A stretch of 30,617 nucleotides of DNA from contig JBAZRG010000002.1 in the NCBI GenBank assembly GCA_041663145.1, positions 1 through 30,617 of the forward strand, written 5' to 3'. The notes beneath the pieces were generated by a model, which was given only the letters and a program-made list of their open reading frames with translations, made no database searches and was not told where the DNA came from. Shown piece by piece: positions 3,948 to 14,785 of the stretch. Positions within the stretch are counted from its first letter, which is position 1. Every line of letters starts with the position of its first letter. Source of the stretch: Minisyncoccota bacterium (GTDB taxonomy: Bacteria > Patescibacteriota > Minisyncoccia > Phycocordibacterales > PALSA-1337). The position numbers and the translations under genes are program-made.

Positions 3948-4019
3948 GCGCCCGTGGTGAAATGGATATCACAACGGTCTTCGGAACCGTTATTGGGGGT
4001 TCGAGTCCCTCCGGGCGCA
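3948..4019 (+). tRNA. tRNA-Arg (anticodon TCG), no encoded CCA
   Basis: Cloverleaf folded by hand. Acceptor GCGCCCG/CGGGCGC. Anticodon stem ACGGT/ACCGT with loop CTTCGGA. T-loop TTCGAGT. Discriminator A. Confidence 0.7.
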
Positions 4020-4961: not shown

Positions 4962-5032
4962 GCGGGTATAGTTTAGTGGTAGAACATATCGTTGCCAACG
5001 ATAAAATGGGAGTCCGATTCTCCCTACCCGCA
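4962..5032 (+). tRNA. tRNA-Gly (anticodon GCC)
   Basis: Acceptor GCGGGTA/TACCCGC. Anticodon stem TATCG/CGATA with loop TTGCCAA. T-stem GGGAG/CTCCC. Confidence 0.8.
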
Positions 5033-5074: not shown

Positions 5075-5261
5075 TAGAGTCAATTTAGTAGGCAATATTG
5101 CCATATTTGTATTGCACATTGAAGGGAATTGCGTTGAGATCACTCAATGAATGGGGGATAAAGAGTGTCCGAGATAATATGGCTAAGAATCGTGAAGTTA
5201 TTAGACAAACTGGGGATAAGTCTGTGAATTAGGTTTATAAGAGACAAAAATAATGGCTTAG

Positions 5262-5660
5262 ATGCGTAAAACCATGTCTGATTTGCATACCAGAGCAAAA
5301 GGCGTAATTGGTGAAGATGTAGCTTGTAAATACTTAATAGGTAAGGGTTTTAAGCTTGAAAAGAGAAATTATCAAAAAGCTTGGGGAGAGATAGATATAA
5401 TAGCGTTAAAGGACAATACGATTCATTTCTTTGAAGTTAAGAGCGTTACAGCTGATTTTTCGGCTTATAATAACAATCATAGACCTGAAGAAAATGTCCA
5501 TAATCTAAAAGTGAGTCATATTCGGAGAATGGTAAAAACCTATTTAGAAGAATCAAAAAGGGGAATGGAAGCTGATTTTCAATTTCATGTTCTTTGTGTT
5601 TATATGGACATGAACAAAAGGGTAGCCAGGATCCGTCTCTTGGAAAATCTCATCATTTGA
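5262..5660 (+). CDS. yraN: YraN/UPF0102-family endonuclease-like protein
   Basis: 132 aa. GEDVACKYLIGKGFKLEKRN..GEIDIIAL....FFEVKS matches the UPF0102 signature. Confidence 0.75.
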   Translation: MRKTMSDLHTRAKGVIGEDVACKYLIGKGFKLEKRNYQKAWGEIDIIALKDNTIHFFEVKSVTADFSAYNNNHRPEENVHNLKVSHIRRMVKTYLEESKRGMEADFQFHVLCVYMDMNKRVARIRLLENLII

Positions 5661-5728
5661 AGTATTGTGGTCCAATATATTTGAATAATGTGAACTTTTC
5701 AATATTTATGATACGATAGGCAAACATT

Positions 5729-5801
5729 CGGAGCGTGGTGTAACGGCTAACATGCCTCTTTTGGGAAGAGGTGACTCCGGGTTCGAATCCCGGCGCTCCG
5801 A
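5729..5801 (+). tRNA. tRNA-Pro (anticodon TGG)
   Basis: Acceptor CGGAGCG/CGCTCCG with C1-G72, as expected for bacterial tRNA-Pro. Anticodon stem CCTCT/AGAGG with loop TTTGGGA. T-arm CCGGG-TTCGAAT-CCCGG. Discriminator A. It has no trailer hairpin, unlike the other three tRNAs. Confidence 0.8.
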
Positions 5802-5854
5802 CAGGGAATAGTAGCGGTTGTGTGATTGTAGTAAATAATAAGTTATAAAGATTT

Positions 5855-6289
5855 ATGATCAAAAAAATAGTCGATTTCTTTGATAAATTTGAAGACAAAA
5901 TACGAGGTGGTCTCAGTCGCTTTCCGATTCTTTATACTCTGGTTGGTGGTATTGCAATAGTTTTATTTTGGCGTGGTGTTTGGCATACGGCGGATATTCT
6001 GCAGTCCAAGGGAGGTTGGTTGGGTTGGCTCTTCTATGAGCCTACGAATCTTGTGATCGTTGTGCTTATCCTGCTCGCGACTGGTCTGTTTGTCTCATAC
6101 TTCATTGGCGACACTATCCTTATCAGTGGGATGAAGGGTGAAAAGAAATTGGCAGAAAAGACTGAGAGGGAAGTGAAAGAAGAGGAGCAGAAGATAAAAG
6201 AACTACGTGAGACTATTGTAGCTATGAAAAAAGAAGTGGATGAGATCAAAGATATTGTGACAGAGAAGAAAGATGATCAGCAACAGTAA
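5855..6289 (+). CDS. Hypothetical membrane protein (two TM helices plus charged coiled-coil tail)
   Basis: 144 aa. Hydrophobic segments (ILYTLVGGIAIVLFW, LVIVVLILLATGLFVSYFI) are followed by a KE-rich C-terminus. Confidence 0.5.
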   Translation: MIKKIVDFFDKFEDKIRGGLSRFPILYTLVGGIAIVLFWRGVWHTADILQSKGGWLGWLFYEPTNLVIVVLILLATGLFVSYFIGDTILISGMKGEKKLAEKTEREVKEEEQKIKELRETIVAMKKEVDEIKDIVTEKKDDQQQ

Positions 6290-6368
6290 ATTGGAGAAGA
6301 CTAATAGTGAAATTTTACGACTGATTTGCTAGTATGAAAGTCATCTCAGATTATATTGATAATAAATC

Positions 6369-6439
6369 GCGGGATTAGTTAAATGGTATAATAACAGTTT
6401 TCCAAACTGTGGTCGGGAGTTCGATTCTCCCATCCCGCA
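6369..6439 (+). tRNA. tRNA-Gly (anticodon TCC)
   Basis: Acceptor GCGGGAT/ATCCCGC. Anticodon stem ACAGT/ACTGT with loop TTTCCAA. T-arm GGGAG-TTCGATT-CTCCC. Confidence 0.8.
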
Positions 6440-6492
6440 CTACTTCGCAACTCGGCTATTCGCCGAGTTGCTTCGTAGTGCAGGCACTTTTT
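6440..6492 (+). repeat. Conserved tRNA-trailer hairpin element, copy 3 (20-bp stem), followed by a T-run
   Basis: CACTACTTCGCAACTCGGC tatt GCCGAGTTGCTTCGTAGTG, with 17 of 20 positions paired, then CAGGCACTTTTTATAG. Likely also acts as an intrinsic terminator. Confidence 0.6.
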
Positions 6493-6557
6493 ATAGCGGG
6501 AAAAATCCCCGCATTATTTAGCGGGGGAATGTGGTAAAAGTGATTTTTTTTATCGAG

Positions 6558-6812
6558 TTAAATTTGAGAGCATCCTGCGGCTCTGACAGAATATTCTCGT
6601 TCAACGATTCTCCAGCGCTCGAACATTTTTGTTGTCATGTAAATTGTTCCGACCAGACTCCAGAGTAAGTTGTACTCTGTGATCAACTTGTCACCTGGCA
6701 TGTTTTCAGGGTTAAGTTGTCTCTTTTTGTGAAGTTTCCTGAATTTGTCCCATCTTGTTTTTAGTGAACTATTTCGTTTAACAATTTCTAGTTGAGTCAT
6801 GTATCCTTTCAC
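6558..6812 (-). CDS. Hypothetical small basic protein (uncertain)
   Basis: 84 aa. There is an AAAGGA Shine-Dalgarno-like sequence 3 nt before the ATG. Nothing else supports it. Confidence 0.3.
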   Translation of the reverse strand: MKGYMTQLEIVKRNSSLKTRWDKFRKLHKKRQLNPENMPGDKLITEYNLLWSLVGTIYMTTKMFERWRIVEREYSVRAAGCSQI

Positions 6813-7102
6813 AGATTTGTTCTAAATCTAAAATTACCAGCAGACTAGTATAATTGCAAGGATCATTCAGTGTCTTTGATACTCAAAGAATCTCTCTCAA
6901 AAACTTGACTTCTATAACGGGTCATGATAAGGTGTAGTCAGTTAGTATAAATTTTATAAGCATCGTCACGAATGTTTCGTGAAAATGCAACTTAACCTTC
7001 GATAGCCCTTTAAATAGCCACTAGGCACCCTCGTCGGCCGCATCTTTGATAGTTTCGGCTCCGCGGGCTAGTTAACAAGTACCATAACCATATAATTCAT
7101 CG

Positions 7103-10318: not shown

Positions 10319-11848
10319 CTACCTCGCAAATTCCATCGATCTGGTTTCTCGAATTACCATGACTCGAATTTCACCAGGGTATTTGAGGTCTTTTTCTATT
10401 TTGAGGGCTATGTTGCGAGCTAATTCCTTGGCTTCAACATCACCGATCTCTTCGGGTTTGACGAAGATACGGATCTCTCGGCCGGCCTGTAGAGCATAGG
10501 ATTTTTCGATTCCAGGGAAAGAATTGGCAAGAGCTTCGAGATCTCCGAGTCTCTTTAAGTAATTTTCTATATTGTCGCGACGTGCACCAGGACGAGCTCC
10601 GGAGATTGCATCTGCAGTCTGAACGATGCGTGACTCGATCGTCTCATAAGGATATTCTTCATGATGAGCTTGCATGGCTTTGACTATCTCTTCTGAAGCA
10701 CCGAACTTTTGGAGGATTCGGCGACCGATCTCGACGTGAGTTCCGGCAACTTCATGATCCAAAGCCTTACCTATATCGTGAAGAAGGGCACCTGATTTGG
10801 CAACTTGGACATTTGCACCGAGCTCTTCAGCTATCATTCCAGCAATATGAGCCATTTCAACTGAGTGTTGAAGGACATTTTGACCATAACTTGTACGGAA
10901 ATGGAGTCTTCCTAGAATGAGTAAGATCCTAGGATCCAAACCGATAATGCCACATTCGTAAGCGGCGGCCTCACCTTTTTCTTTAATGGTTTTATTTATA
11001 TCTTGTTTAGCTTTTTCTACTACCTGTTCGATCTTGGCTGGCTGAATACGTCCGTCTTTGATAAGTTCCAACAGTGCCAAACGGGCAACATGTCTTCGAA
11101 CTGGATCAAATGATGAAATTGTAATAGCGCCTGGAGTATCGTCGACCATGACTTCAACGCCGGTGATTCTTTCGAAAGCCTTGATATTACGACCTTCTTT
11201 TCCGATGATCTTACCTTTTACGTCATCGCTAGGTATTTCTACGATTGTCGACATTACATCCTGAGCGACTGATGAAGCAAGTCTCTGAATAGATATAGCC
11301 AAGATATCCATGGCCTTTTTTTCGAGTATTTCTTCACCTTGAGTCTCTAGTTTATTCATTCGGACCAAAAAGTCCTCTTCGGACTGCTTTTCGATCGATT
11401 TCATGAGTTGATCTTTCGCTTCTTCGGCAGATAACTTTGAGATCTTTTCAAGCTCTTTTTTACGATCCTCTTCGAGTTTATCGGCTTTTTCACGAATAGT
11501 CTTTATCTCGGCTACTCGAGTCTTTATAAGCTCGACTTCACGATCGAGGTCCGCTTGACGTCTATCCATGAGATCTTCACGCTTGACTAGACGGTCTTCG
11601 GTTTGTCGGATCTTTTCTTCTTTCTCTTTTACTTCTTTACGTGTACTTTCGATGGTATTGGTGGCTTTTGTTTCGGCATCGGTCGTAATCTTTTTGGCTT
11701 CTTCCTTGGCGGCAAGGAGCATCTCCTTGATCTCGAGTTCCATGGAACCTTTTTTACCGAGGGAGATTATCAATCTAAGATAATAACCGATAGCCACACC
11801 GACAACGCCAGATATGGCGAGGAATAGGGTGACTAGTTTGAGTGACAT
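10319..11848 (-). CDS. rny: Ribonuclease Y
   Basis: 509 aa. N-terminal TM helix, long coiled coil, KH domain (IGKEGRNIKAFERITGV) and HD domain (LHDIGKA). Confidence 0.9.
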   Translation of the reverse strand: MSLKLVTLFLAISGVVGVAIGYYLRLIISLGKKGSMELEIKEMLLAAKEEAKKITTDAETKATNTIESTRKEVKEKEEKIRQTEDRLVKREDLMDRRQADLDREVELIKTRVAEIKTIREKADKLEEDRKKELEKISKLSAEEAKDQLMKSIEKQSEEDFLVRMNKLETQGEEILEKKAMDILAISIQRLASSVAQDVMSTIVEIPSDDVKGKIIGKEGRNIKAFERITGVEVMVDDTPGAITISSFDPVRRHVARLALLELIKDGRIQPAKIEQVVEKAKQDINKTIKEKGEAAAYECGIIGLDPRILLILGRLHFRTSYGQNVLQHSVEMAHIAGMIAEELGANVQVAKSGALLHDIGKALDHEVAGTHVEIGRRILQKFGASEEIVKAMQAHHEEYPYETIESRIVQTADAISGARPGARRDNIENYLKRLGDLEALANSFPGIEKSYALQAGREIRIFVKPEEIGDVEAKELARNIALKIEKDLKYPGEIRVMVIRETRSMEFAR

Positions 11849-12030: not shown

Positions 12031-12822
12031 TTATGCTTGTGGTCGAGACCCCAACTGATTATTAAGCCTTTTTGCCTCATTCCAAGCCAGTTCATACATT
12101 TTCTTCATAGCGTCGGCTATTTCTGCACTTTCTATCATTATTCCCAGCTTTTCTTTCCAAGAGGCAATCATAACCTTGTTATCGTAGATGTTGATTTCCG
12201 GAGTAAAATAATATGTTTCAGATGGTATGAAAGCAATCTCTCTCTTTTCTTCTTTATCATGTTCTCGTCTTTCATCTCCCGCTTGTGTTTTTGGCACGAT
12301 CGCTCGAATAGAGATGTTTTTTCCTGCTCGGCGCTTATAGTAATCAGGAAAATAGTTCGGTAGAGCGTTGTGCATGTCATCGACTGTAGCGAATGCCCGG
12401 ATCGGTTCAGAGCTAGTCAGTGTATCTTCATAGACGCGCTTCAAACCTTCGGTTCCTTCATAAAATTTGATTCGAGGTCTGTTTTGGACGGCATAGACAC
12501 TCAATAGTTGGGGAATAAATTCCTGCGCTTTCTTTATGCGATTCATCGCATCATCAGCCATCTTCTGGAGATGGTCAATCAATGATTTTGGCGGTTCAGC
12601 AGAATATTCTGATTTGGGCTCCTTTCCAGATAAATTGACCACACCTATATTTATCAGCGAATCCAAAATTTCATAGCCGGTAGTACGATTGATGCCAGCT
12701 TTTCTCGATATTTGTGAAACGGTGCCTTTGCCAAGTTCCAATAGGGAAATGTAAACACTGGATTCCTTTTCACTGAATCCGAGTGCCTGCAAAGCTGTCT
12801 TGAGTTGGTTGTAATCGTTCAT
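12031..12822 (-). CDS. TrmB-family HTH transcriptional regulator
   Basis: 263 aa. N-terminal winged HTH (SVYISLLELGKGTVSQISRKAGINRTTGYEILDSLINIGVV) with a C-terminal sensor-like domain. Divergently oriented to the 12939 promoter. Confidence 0.7.
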   Translation of the reverse strand: MNDYNQLKTALQALGFSEKESSVYISLLELGKGTVSQISRKAGINRTTGYEILDSLINIGVVNLSGKEPKSEYSAEPPKSLIDHLQKMADDAMNRIKKAQEFIPQLLSVYAVQNRPRIKFYEGTEGLKRVYEDTLTSSEPIRAFATVDDMHNALPNYFPDYYKRRAGKNISIRAIVPKTQAGDERREHDKEEKREIAFIPSETYYFTPEINIYDNKVMIASWKEKLGIMIESAEIADAMKKMYELAWNEAKRLNNQLGSRPQA

Positions 12823-12938: not shown

Positions 12939-12967
12939 TTGACAAGCAGATTTTGATGTGCTATACT
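12939..12967 (+). promoter_or_regulatory. Consensus sigma70-type promoter TTGACA-17-TATACT
   Basis: Read directly: TTGACA at 12939-12944, a 17-nt spacer, TATACT at 12962-12967. It lies about 120 nt upstream of the 13090 gene. Confidence 0.7.
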
Positions 12968-13089
12968 TTGAGTAGAACTATGAAAGATCATTGATAATCC
13001 TCTTGCAAGTAGTTACGGCCACAAGGCTTTGAAAATCGAGACTTTCTGGCTGAAACTGCACAACAATCAACCAAAACGGAAGGACTATT

Positions 13090-13437
13090 GTGAGAAAGAT
13101 TAAAGTGAATAAAGTAACGGGTGTAAGTGTGACAACATCGTACATGTGGTTCACGAATGACGAAGCCATCGAGGAATTTATGCGCGAGAAATATTTTAGA
13201 AAGGAACCTCGTTCTGATTCTTTGGGAATGGACTTTGCACCTACGTGCAACATTGACGTCTTCATCTACATCAACGACGACACCTCTGAATATCGACTAG
13301 TTATCGGTCTCTTAGATGCAGAAGTTGCCATTGATTCAGGCACCGTCAAGGGCTCACCCTTACCTTGCGATGAAGGGCATTCGCTCCGTTTGTCAGGGAC
13401 ATTCCTTGAAGACTGCGGGGTTGTTTGTGAAGACTAG
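13090..13437 (+). CDS. Hypothetical protein (GTG start, GGAAGG Shine-Dalgarno), GC-richer codon usage
   Basis: 115 aa. Good RBS 6 nt upstream. Acidic, Cys-containing C-terminus. No recognisable family. Confidence 0.5.
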   Translation: MRKIKVNKVTGVSVTTSYMWFTNDEAIEEFMREKYFRKEPRSDSLGMDFAPTCNIDVFIYINDDTSEYRLVIGLLDAEVAIDSGTVKGSPLPCDEGHSLRLSGTFLEDCGVVCED

Positions 13438-13490
13438 AGAGTCCGCAAGCAGGTTTAGAACAAGTTCGGAAGGTTCCAGCTTTAAACCTT

Positions 13491-13545
13491 CCTCTGTATC
13501 GAGATGTGTTATCTCGACTGATGATTCCGAAAGGATGAAACAGAG
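13491..13545 (+). ncRNA. Type III hammerhead-ribozyme-like motif (copy A, near-canonical)
   Basis: 5'-CCUCUGUA|UCGAGAU-GUGUU-AUCUCGA-CUGAUGA-UUCC-GAAA-GGAU-GAAAC-AGAG. Stem III is 6 bp (CUCUGU/ACAGAG) including the A15.1-U16.1 pair. Cleavage triplet GUA. Stem I is a 7-bp hairpin. CUGAUGA and GAAAC are exact. Stem II is 3 bp plus a U.U at the 10.1/11.1 position, with a GAAA loop. A GGAAGGTT/AACCTTCC hairpin lies immediately upstream. Confidence 0.6.
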
Positions 13546-13591
13546 CTCTTTAAGAAATGCTTGCAAAGTAAAAACTCAACGAAAGGAAAAT

Positions 13592-14125
13592 ATGTCAATT
13601 CTAAGCGCTATCTATCAACTCTGCCCCCATTTGGCCAACCAACGCCCATATGTTGGTGCAGGAAACACACAACTGGTCCTTACAGTAGGAGATGCATCGA
13701 TGGATGAGATGGTCAGTGTTCTAAAGAATCGATGTACAACGATGGGCGGATATAAAGATGATGTGGATTTTGTCCAACCATTTTTTAAACAGCTCCAACA
13801 GTCTCCCTGTACTGGATCGGTCAATCTTATTCGGGTTTGTGCCGATCTTGGTCCTGCGAACTCTTGGCCGAACTATTGCGGTCACGAAATAAATCGTATG
13901 GCCCGCGAGAAGGGTCTGGAGTTCTGCACATCGGAGATCGTGTGCAAACTATTCCAAGCTTGGTTACACACACCAAAAGCAAGAGATCACTTCTACGTCA
14001 GTTGCGGCGATCTCTTCTGTTTCTTCACTGATTACGGTGGGGACCGACGCCAGATAATTATCTGCAACGATTACAGCGATATTCCATTCGGTGAGGATGT
14101 GATTTATCTTGATTCTCGCAAGTAG
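13592..14125 (+). CDS. Hypothetical Cys-rich protein (11 Cys), GC-richer; flanked by the two hammerhead-like repeats
   Basis: 177 aa. ATG at 13592 preceded by AAAGGAAAA. The longer ORF starting at 13316 is rejected because its upstream extension runs through the ribozyme motif. Confidence 0.55.
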   Translation: MSILSAIYQLCPHLANQRPYVGAGNTQLVLTVGDASMDEMVSVLKNRCTTMGGYKDDVDFVQPFFKQLQQSPCTGSVNLIRVCADLGPANSWPNYCGHEINRMAREKGLEFCTSEIVCKLFQAWLHTPKARDHFYVSCGDLFCFFTDYGGDRRQIIICNDYSDIPFGEDVIYLDSRK

Positions 14126-14165
14126 GTGTCAAACAAGTTTTGGAGGGTTCATCTACAAAACCTTC

Positions 14166-14218
14166 CTCTGTAGCACGATGCGTGTCATGCCCGATGATTC
14201 CAAAAGGATGAAACAGAC
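14166..14218 (+). ncRNA. Hammerhead-like motif (copy B, degenerate: CCGAUGA core, imperfect stem I)
   Basis: About 75% identical to copy A over roughly 90 nt. Same GUA triplet, GAAAC and stem II. Stem I differs in sequence but is still self-complementary. U4 is replaced by C. Confidence 0.45.
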
Positions 14219-14246
14219 CCTATACAATCGTACAGGGTTTTAATTT
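14218..14246 (+). terminator. Intrinsic terminator (CCCTATAC-aatc-GTACAGGG + TTTTAATTT)
   Basis: Hairpin followed by a T-run, read directly. It overlaps the stop codon of the convergent ORF6N gene. Confidence 0.6.
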
Positions 14247-14785
14247 CGCCTGAATCCCATAGGTTCCTTCTTCAACACAGGCTCCTCGAGTAGTTGTTTG
14301 AGAACCTGAAACACTTTGATCATCTGCTTTCCTTGATTTTCTTGTCGATTTTCCAAATCTTCCATCTTTTTGGCCAAATCTTTATGTGTGGCTAACATCT
14401 CACGCAGTTTAATGAAGGCACGAACGATGTAGACGCTGACTGCGACAGCACGAGGACTCCTTAGAACAGCAGAAAGCATGGCAACACCATGTTCGGTAAA
14501 TGCGTAGGGAAGATAGCGACGACCACCGCGACCAGTGTTTGAGATCGCAATTTGCGATCTCAAAGATTCATATTCATTCTTGGAAATTTGAAACATGAAA
14601 TCTTGAGGAAAACGGGATAAGTTGCGCCTAACCTGTTCATTTAATCTGATTGTGCTGACACCATATAACTCTGCCAGATCGCTATCCAACATCACTTTTT
14701 GTCCGCGAATCAGATAAATCCTCCGCTCGATTACTTCCATCGGGATTATGGATATTGGCTTTGTATCTGGTGCACTTGTTTGCAT
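14240..14785 (-). CDS. ORF6N-domain (KilA-N/Rha-like) DNA-binding protein
   Basis: 181 aa. IRGQKVMLDSDLAELYGVSTIRLNEQVRRNLSRFPQDFMFQ...GGRRYLPYAFTEHGVAMLSAVL is the characteristic ORF6N pattern found in phage and mobile-element proteins. Confidence 0.8.
   Translation of the reverse strand: MQTSAPDTKPISIIPMEVIERRIYLIRGQKVMLDSDLAELYGVSTIRLNEQVRRNLSRFPQDFMFQISKNEYESLRSQIAISNTGRGGRRYLPYAFTEHGVAMLSAVLRSPRAVAVSVYIVRAFIKLREMLATHKDLAKKMEDLENRQENQGKQMIKVFQVLKQLLEEPVLKKEPMGFRRN

Follow-up and report, generated by a model that had tools for sequence, protein, structure and literature searches.

The 30,617-nt stretch of Minisyncoccota bacterium analyzed here (contig JBAZRG010000002.1; hereafter the window) carries two similar, unannotated repeats on either side of a 177-aa gene, and the question raised by this locus is what the repeats are and what they do for the genes around them. 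An earlier note, made from the sequence alone, had read them as type III hammerhead ribozymes that flank the gene and process a polycistronic transcript. This reading is supported by covariation in a family of relatives, by a covariance model built from relatives only, and by conserved placement at related loci. Judged by their sequences, the two repeats are members of the type III hammerhead class. We consider it likely, with a probability of about 0.8, that the hammerheads cut the transcript of the upstream 115-aa gene (gene1) and the 177-aa gene (gene2) into separately stabilized single-gene mRNAs.

The direct repeats that the earlier note described around gene2 were recovered (Table 1). 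They are about 103 nt long and lie at an offset of 673-674 nt, and pairwise alignment shows blocks of 72-96% identity, about 80% overall. Each repeat has three parts, namely a short module of the 3' untranslated region (UTR) that starts with CGCAAG, an 8-bp hairpin (P0), and then the type III hammerhead element order. The upstream hammerhead (copy A) reads CCUCUGUA, the stem I hairpin UCGAGAU-GUGUU-AUCUCGA, CUGAUGA, stem II with its loop (U-UCC-GAAA-GGA-U), and GAAAC AGAG. This full order of elements, already seen in the earlier note, is borne out by the sequence, by the Rfam model RF00008, by the relatives-only model (R1) and by the minimum free energy (MFE) fold. The core is canonical, with CUGAUGA, GAAA, the pair A13540-U13497 and A13498 at H17, and the topology is that of a type III three-helix junction, in which stems I and II are capped and stem III is open. 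The predicted cut lies between A13498 and U13499, the position at which the earlier note had also placed it. Copy A alone has the hammerhead as its MFE structure (-16.2 kcal/mol, z = -2.85), and in a permissive search of 901 nt RF00008 aligns end to end with 13491-13546 (E = 1e-5). Copy A has twins in related loci (numbered with L throughout), identical in L120 and near-identical in L119. We conclude that copy A has everything predicted to be needed for activity.

The assignment is carried by comparison with relatives. Homologous loci hold hammerheads at the same junctions with different helices: in L001, the first gene is preceded by a canonical copy (stem II GUCC/GGAC) and the two genes are separated by one with the core CCGAUGA (stem II GUCG/CGAC). 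L003 contributes a canonical copy (stem II GCUC/GAGC), and L004 has a degenerate copy followed by a canonical one whose stem I is GCGAAG/CUUCGC and whose stem III has one A-U pair more. A search pattern made of the shared stem I and core, taken from the element of the candidate phyla radiation (CPR), matched 36 IMG/VR contigs and 77 stretches in GTDB species genomes. Among 104 distinct aligned sequences, 90.7% of the cells at paired positions are paired, compared with 31-50% when the 3' partners are slid. Cells changed on both sides number 330 against 87 in shuffles, and such double changes occur in 13 of the 17 pairs. Shuffles give a covariation score of 0.168, and none of 500 attains the observed 0.529. 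Trained on 97 relatives and without either window copy, the covariance model R1 scores both copies clearly (Table 1); run over the whole window with filters off, it gives no candidate besides copies A and B. A third, decayed hammerhead considered in the 5' UTR of gene1 (about 13040-13075) was rejected: R1 with filters off misses it, and its alignment with the first hammerhead of L001 is unconvincing.

Among the 148 hits of the model, 91 have C at the cleavage-site position H17, 32 have U and 25 have A, and none has G. The residues C3, G5, A6, G8 and GAAA are essentially invariant, with exceptions in an A9U copy in L046 and a degenerate GAAA in L004, and the variation of the family sits at N7 (seven cases, six C and one A), H17, positions 10.1/11.1 and the loops. 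The earlier note had allowed that further copies might reveal a generic repeat without a conserved core; the further copies keep the catalytic core. Both window copies have U.U at 10.1/11.1 instead of the pair G10.1-C11.1 that closes stem II. The earlier note had correctly seen this in copy A and had counted it as a deviation. Positions 10.1/11.1 are G-C in 66 of the 104 sequences, G-U in 5 and other combinations in 33; since about one third of the members lack the canonical pair, the U.U of the window copies is a normal, recurrent family variant. Natural U10.1-U11.1 hammerheads exist and are active, and no other mismatch supports as much activity (PMC3088659).

At its gathering thresholds, Rfam reports only four tRNAs and no hammerhead in the window, and no hammerhead match in 15 loci tested likewise (L001, L003, L004, L009, L029, L042, L059, L069, L077, L081, L088, L117, L022, L065 and L072). 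The two copies of L001 reach 46.9 bits (fully canonical) and 37.3 bits with RF00008, whose gathering score is 48.5 bits. As the threshold fails even canonical relatives, the threshold and not the motif is limiting, and the position of the subclass below it probably explains the missing annotation. The check with Rfam covariance models that the earlier note proposed gave an end-to-end match for copy A below the gathering score, and copy B was not reported by RF00008 at permissive settings. Poor scores with such models had been named as a refutation; because the RF00008 threshold misses the whole subclass, that yardstick is inapplicable here.

Some members have stem II extended to an extra hairpin by insertions of 15-40 nt (L112 7296-7385 and 6178-6267; L047 1079-1158 and 531-599; L046 2536-2617; L049 2323-2397; L111 4800-4869), and these could be regulated or elaborated variants. 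In L088, a DUF805b RNA motif (RF02914, 50.8 bits, above gathering) lies at 5265-5299, about 110 nt past the hammerhead at 5098-5151 and right before the next open reading frame (ORF).

Copy B keeps the architecture, as the earlier note stated, and its core reads CCGAUGA (U4C) with the remaining core intact. The note had called it probably inactive on account of U4C, and relatives allow this to be judged. Position 4 was left free in the search pattern; in the pattern set, U occurs there 86 times, C six times, and A and G never. C4 is found in nine of the 148 family members; seven are otherwise perfect and score 63-73 bits, and the two imperfect ones are copy B of the window and L004:648. C4 is the sole recurrent change at a conserved core position, and C4 and U4 copies stand side by side in arrays, as in L088, where C4, U4, C4 and U4 alternate (1148, 2379, 3660, 5098), L001 (4458, 4898), L065 (273, 870) and L053 (774, 5379). 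The C4 copies of L065, L072 and both of those of L088 have a common stem III and compensatory differences in stems I and II. The recurrence of C4 with compensated stems suggests that it is tolerated and compatible with function. A U4C variant of a viroid hammerhead is much slower in vitro and still infectious (cited by Perreault et al., PMC3088659).

U4C is thus not automatically fatal; nevertheless, "weak or vestigial" is a fair description of copy B, given the mismatch in its stem I and its terminal place in the operon, where only the terminator and no gene follows. Stem I, which had been described as completely different from that of copy A, is GCACGAU/GUCAUGC, with two compensatory pair changes and one C.A mismatch. 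Stem III has five bp and R1 aligns over the full length; the MFE structure of copy B alone is not a hammerhead. L120 and L121, 80% identical to the window locus, have the stem I of the copy B type fully paired (GCACGAU/GUCGUGC). The intact counterpart of copy B in L120 (1510-1563) has a CUGAUGA core and lies between gene1 and gene2, and in both loci a copy identical to copy A lies between gene2 and a third gene. L119, 92% identical, has a hairpin and a terminator after gene2 and no ribozyme. Relative to its intact L120 counterpart, copy B has two point defects. It is probably attenuated or vestigial and, by comparison with these loci, most likely a weakened or decaying remnant of a longer cassette array.

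The hairpin upstream of the hammerhead, which had been noted in both copies, is confirmed in both and is a feature of the family. Among about 103 upstream hairpins, 73 end exactly at the first position of the ribozyme, and 40-nt upstream segments with an MFE of -8 kcal/mol or lower make up 53% of the family and 22% of controls. On the other side, 81 of 144 family hammerheads are followed within 25 nt by a GUUCUUU(R)AA-like motif, which also occurs in the 5' UTR of a ribozyme-less gene2 homologue with its own promoter (L118 960-975). Pairing of this leader motif with loop II/stem II or with the loop of the upstream hairpin was considered and rejected, no joint change being seen by inspection. 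A closing helix between GCAAGCA (13445-13451) and UGCUUGC (13559-13565) exists in the window and was discarded as a family feature; the duplex energy between flanks in 143 members is -13.96 kcal/mol, compared with -13.1 kcal/mol in mismatched controls. The cassette genes gene2 and gene3, which are mutually unrelated, end in similar codons (..RKQERQ and ..RNHERQ), and their ends share a 3'-UTR module made of ACGGCAGTAGGTCTGCCAAA and a GGAG...CUCC hairpin (L120 2755-2810; L001 5480-5530; L119 1655-1715; L118 1556-1620; window 14117-14140). The similar codons together with the common module suggest that a module at the nucleotide level overlaps the ends of the coding regions.

Family membership, covariation, conserved placement, the array organization in relatives and the link to TrmB are computed results; cleavage itself, the boundaries of the transcripts and the stabilizing role of the end hairpins are what we infer. 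The element is a composite of a P0 hairpin and a type III hammerhead and would sit in the spacers of a short operon of promoter, gene1 and gene2; the promoter-like site at 12939 probably drives both genes, as its match to the consensus suggests. On transcription, hammerhead A would fold and cut itself at the predicted site. The gene1 mRNA would then end in a 2',3'-cyclic phosphate a few nt past P0-A, and this hairpin, now at its 3' end, would shield it from 3' exonucleases. The 5'-OH at the start of the gene2 mRNA would lie right at the base of stem I, the remaining ribozyme would form a structured 5' cap, and the message would be shielded from 5'-end-dependent RNases. With both ends protected, one transcript would give two mRNAs that are separately stabilized and translated, and the two genes would be uncoupled.

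Table 1. Coordinates of the features of the locus in the window.
Feature	Position	Strand	Basis or remark
RNase Y gene	10319-11848	-	near the TrmB-family gene
TrmB-family transcription regulator gene	12031-12822	-	Pfam PF01978, E = 3.5e-16; divergent from the ribozyme-bearing operon
Promoter-like site, TTGACA-17-TATACT with TG extension	12939-12967	+	11/12 consensus positions; best site of the region; consensus match only
gene1, 115 aa	13090-13437	+	ORF; no Pfam, PHROG or PADLOC match
Direct repeat A	13444-13546	+	3'-UTR module, hairpin and hammerhead; repeat families D1-D3 and pairwise alignment
Hairpin P0-A, GGAAGGUU / AACCUUCC	13468-13492	+	region fold; flush against stem III
Hammerhead A (type III, predicted)	13492-13546	+	RF00008 35.2 bits; R1 67.3 bits, E 1.4e-19; MFE fold
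Leader motif GCUCUUUAAG	13545-13554	+	variant of the family GUUCUUU(R)AA motif
gene2, 177 aa	13592-14125	+	ORF; Shine-Dalgarno-like GAAAGGAAAA ahead, at 13581-13590
Direct repeat B	14117-14220	+	overlaps the final codons of gene2
Hairpin P0-B, GGAGGGUU / AACCUUCC, one G.U	14142-14166	+	region fold and junction alignment
Hammerhead B (predicted)	14166-14219	+	R1 50.2 bits, E 5.8e-14; nominal cut 14172/14173
Terminator-like hairpin and U-tract	14217-14246	+	region fold; shared with the convergent ORF6N gene; U-tract read from sequence
ORF6N gene	14240-14785	-	convergent with the gene1-gene2 operon

Several points weigh against this proposal. Copy A scores 35.2 bits, below the 48.5 bits of the RF00008 gathering score, and in a 106-nt context its MFE fold lacks stem III. 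Cleavage at copy B, if any, would remove the terminator hairpin, with no obvious benefit. Where RNase J is present, a 5'-OH end can mark an RNA for decay, as in the glmS precedent, and the effect on gene2 could for this reason go either way.

The last point leads to the alternative that survives best, although we judge it unlikely: the ribozymes would be regulatory or destabilizing, lowering or tuning downstream expression through degradation of the 5'-OH product or through conditional cleavage, and slow C4 variants would set a different ratio of cleaved to uncleaved RNA at each junction. The C4 cores in otherwise perfect hammerheads beside U4 copies (L088, L001, L065, L053) fit this, and the big stem II insertions of L112, L047, L046, L049 and L111 could sense something; for phages, Perreault et al. 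(PMC3088659) also suggested that slower variants may be regulated. However, most copies have canonical cores of the fast type, the hairpins, flush at the 5' end and conserved at the 3' end, look protective, and the window copies have no recognizable ligand-binding element.

A second alternative concerns the movement of cassettes. When the junctions of the window, L119 and L120 are aligned, they form a mosaic of three modules: the 5' module (3' UTR, hairpin and CCUCUGUA) stays with the upstream gene, and the stem I type (A or B) and the leader type (short or long) reassort between junctions. In L044 (reverse strand, 5228-6877), a hammerhead-bounded cassette has undergone an exact 834-bp tandem duplication with an offset of 816, and the duplication junctions lie within a shared 18-nt stretch, GAAACAGAAGTTCTTTAA, suggesting unequal crossing-over between ribozyme copies at the DNA level. 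In addition, gene1 has no homology to the first gene of the syntenic locus L001, so the ribozyme repeats also appear to be junctions for cassette turnover. The alternative is that both cuts release a 674-nt RNA (13499-14172) and that circles, or DNA copies of circles, carry cassettes between arrays in the manner of retrozymes. The geometry would suit this, as the type III hammerheads lie in direct repeats and their cut sites are 674 nt apart, and ligation of the ends would rebuild an intact hammerhead A in the circle, as both copies share the 5' strand CCUCUGUA. The reassorted modules, the duplicated cassette and the differing cargo genes of syntenic loci are in keeping with it as well. Nevertheless, we regard this as very unlikely. 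The L044 junctions bear the signature of crossing-over in DNA rather than that of an RNA intermediate. Copy B carries mutations, and between the two copies lies an ordinary coding gene that has a Shine-Dalgarno sequence of its own. No reverse transcriptase, repeats like long terminal repeats (LTRs) or target-site duplications were seen; moreover, Perreault et al. sought circular or spliced products of tandem bacterial hammerheads and found none (PMC3088659). The evidence from the sequences points to cassette turnover through ordinary DNA recombination. That the repeats are generic structural or recombination elements whose likeness to hammerheads is incidental or decoupled from catalysis is barely credible: they do serve as recombination substrates, copy B has accumulated defects and the L118 homologue of gene2 has its own promoter and no ribozyme, yet a generic DNA repeat or plain hairpin would not keep 148 copies with near-invariant catalytic residues, three covarying stems and never a G at the cleavage position.

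Cleavage of the gene1-gene2 transcript remains our preferred reading, and the distribution of the subclass puts it in a wider setting. The genome hits are almost all in Patescibacteria, and the subclass otherwise occurs in some viral contigs. The taxa include Paceibacterota, Saccharibacteria, Parcubacteria, Taylor-, Lloyd-, Vogel-, Wildermuth-, Woese-, Komeili- and Peregrinibacteria; a few hit bins are labelled Gammaproteobacteria or just "bacterium", and a hit in Thermodesulfovibrio was dismissed as a chance match. Since the seed pattern came from a CPR element, these hits show the distribution of the subclass and not a general enrichment of hammerheads in CPR. Many CPR loci have same-strand arrays of three to six hammerheads between small ORFs; L042 and L117 each have six copies, and L088, L046 and L047 each have four. 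None of ten cargo ORFs from other arrays had a Pfam match.

TrmB-family homologues were found in about 29 CPR loci. Relative to the strand of the ribozyme, all but one of 28 scorable loci (including L001 and L041-L104) have their TrmB gene upstream of the nearest hammerhead; 16 of these 27 genes are divergent, mostly 300-860 nt away, and 11 are co-directional. The TrmB-family gene thus looks like the head of putative ribozyme-punctuated operons. RNase Y homologues (56-85% identity) lie a few kb from the arrays, full-length in eight loci (L044, L054, L056, L068, L069, L096, L105 and L118) and as a short fragment in a ninth, L101. Judging from these neighborhoods, RNase Y, TrmB and the array appear to mark a conserved chromosomal position with variable cargo in Paceibacterota. 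In the library that was searched, no report links hammerheads to CPR, Patescibacteria, Saccharibacteria or Parcubacteria.

This position bears on the phage or mobile setting that the earlier note had proposed. An ORF6N gene is indeed adjacent, and its protein matches the PADLOC candidate defence family PDC-S05 (E = 5.6e-60) and also PHROG anti-repressor families. Beyond it, however, no phage or mobile gene was identified among that part of the window's ORFs that was annotated, and a BLAST search of the family consensus against 50,697 GenBank phage records gave no match. The description of the surroundings as a GC-rich island has to be dropped, as 13001-14500 has a GC content of 44-45% and 500-nt bins over the whole window range from 32 to 57%. 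The intrinsic terminator placed just after copy B stands in part. A terminator-like hairpin proper (14217-14238) followed by UUUUAAUUU is present, but the hairpin has one A.C mismatch on the plus strand and the terminator scan calls the minus strand only. Inside the ORF6N gene there is a perfect 13-nt inverted repeat (14538-14564). Elsewhere in the window, four plus-strand tRNA genes span about 2.5 kb (3948-4019, 4962-5032, 5729-5801 and 6369-6439).

The two operon genes gave nothing significant against Pfam, PHROGs and PADLOC. Gene1 has only two close homologues. The gene2 protein has a handful of relatives, to which a profile search of 1.84 billion proteins added only three distant ones; its earlier description as Cys-rich was not confirmed, with two cysteines alone conserved in its seven-member family. 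The gene2 frame is open upstream through hammerhead A, giving a 269-aa ORF (13316-14125, plus strand). In L119, the gene caller gave a 228-aa product (976-1662) that spans the ribozyme, which is likely an annotation artefact.

If the reading holds, the two unannotated repeats of the window are explained and exact RNA ends are predicted for them. A well-known ribozyme class is abundant in CPR genomes and yet invisible to standard Rfam annotation. Cleavage, if true, would offer minimal cells a simple, protein-independent route to make and stabilize single-gene mRNAs, and the arrays would point to a hypervariable accessory locus that deserves study in organisms with few known host-interaction genes. 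A bolder generalization, which we consider possible but doubtful, is a lineage-wide, previously undescribed system of Patescibacteria. TrmB-headed operons at conserved spots would carry hairpin-hammerhead modules between small genes of unknown function, which would punctuate transcripts as tRNAs do in mitochondrial transcripts and also serve as junctions for the duplication, swap and loss of cassettes. This would be a ribozyme-based counterpart of integron arrays, with, at the extreme, exchange through ribozyme-released (circular) RNA.

Compared with the type III hammerheads of RF00008 (clan CL00010), the CPR subclass has the same loop-capped stems I and II and open stem III, CUGAUGA...GAAA, A15.1-U16.1, a non-G cleavage site and a GNRA-like loop II. 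It differs in scoring below the gathering threshold, in a highly conserved stem I and loop (YGAGAU-GYGU-RUCUCR), in the frequent mismatch at 10.1/11.1, and in the hairpin fused 5' of stem III and the GUUCUUU leader motif on the 3' side. Synthetic insulators of the RiboJ type place a satellite-RNA hammerhead and a hairpin in the 5' UTR, which gives a defined 5'-OH and uncouples a gene from its upstream context. The 5'-OH end with a terminal hairpin, predicted here, is the same; in contrast, the window element is natural, arrayed in relatives, and has an extra 5' hairpin that would stay with the upstream RNA. Integron cassette arrays offer an analogy only: both have small, mostly unknown same-strand ORFs between structured repeats of about 60-100 nt and a varying cargo, but here there is no integrase and no attC, the repeats are ribozymes by class, and the shuffling looks like ordinary homologous recombination. 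Retrozymes and viroid-like circular RNAs likewise carry directly repeated type III hammerheads, with about 600-1000 nt from one cut site to the next. The interior here, however, is a bacterial gene (a 177-aa ORF with a Shine-Dalgarno sequence, conserved as a protein) and not non-coding, the repeats of about 103 nt are not LTR-like, retroelement features are absent and the downstream copy is mutated.

The closest precedent is found in prophages, where tandem hammerheads flank genes in Clostridium scindens, Azorhizobium caulinodans and, at ardA, Agrobacterium tumefaciens (Perreault et al. 2011, PMC3088659). In vitro, tandem hammerheads on either side of a single gene cut native polycistronic RNAs of about 2 kb, and a role in transcript processing was proposed for the prophage copies and partly shown in vitro (PMC3088659). 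In both systems several same-strand copies bracket single genes or short blocks of varying identity, processing of a long transcript to gene-length mRNAs is proposed, and natural U10.1-U11.1 and slow core variants occur; in the window, gene2 lies between copies A and B, and a promoter-like site and a terminator-like hairpin flank the whole. The host context is different. The CPR arrays are headed by a TrmB-family regulator gene and lie in a Paceibacterota chromosome at a conserved RNase Y - TrmB site, not in a recognized prophage; the only prophage-like neighbor identified in the window is the adjacent ORF6N/anti-repressor-like gene, and its RNase Y and TrmB-family neighbors hold a position common to many Paceibacterota loci. 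Hammerheads that flank genes are thus already known from prophages, and what is new here is an unannotated, CPR-wide subclass of them in TrmB-headed arrays.

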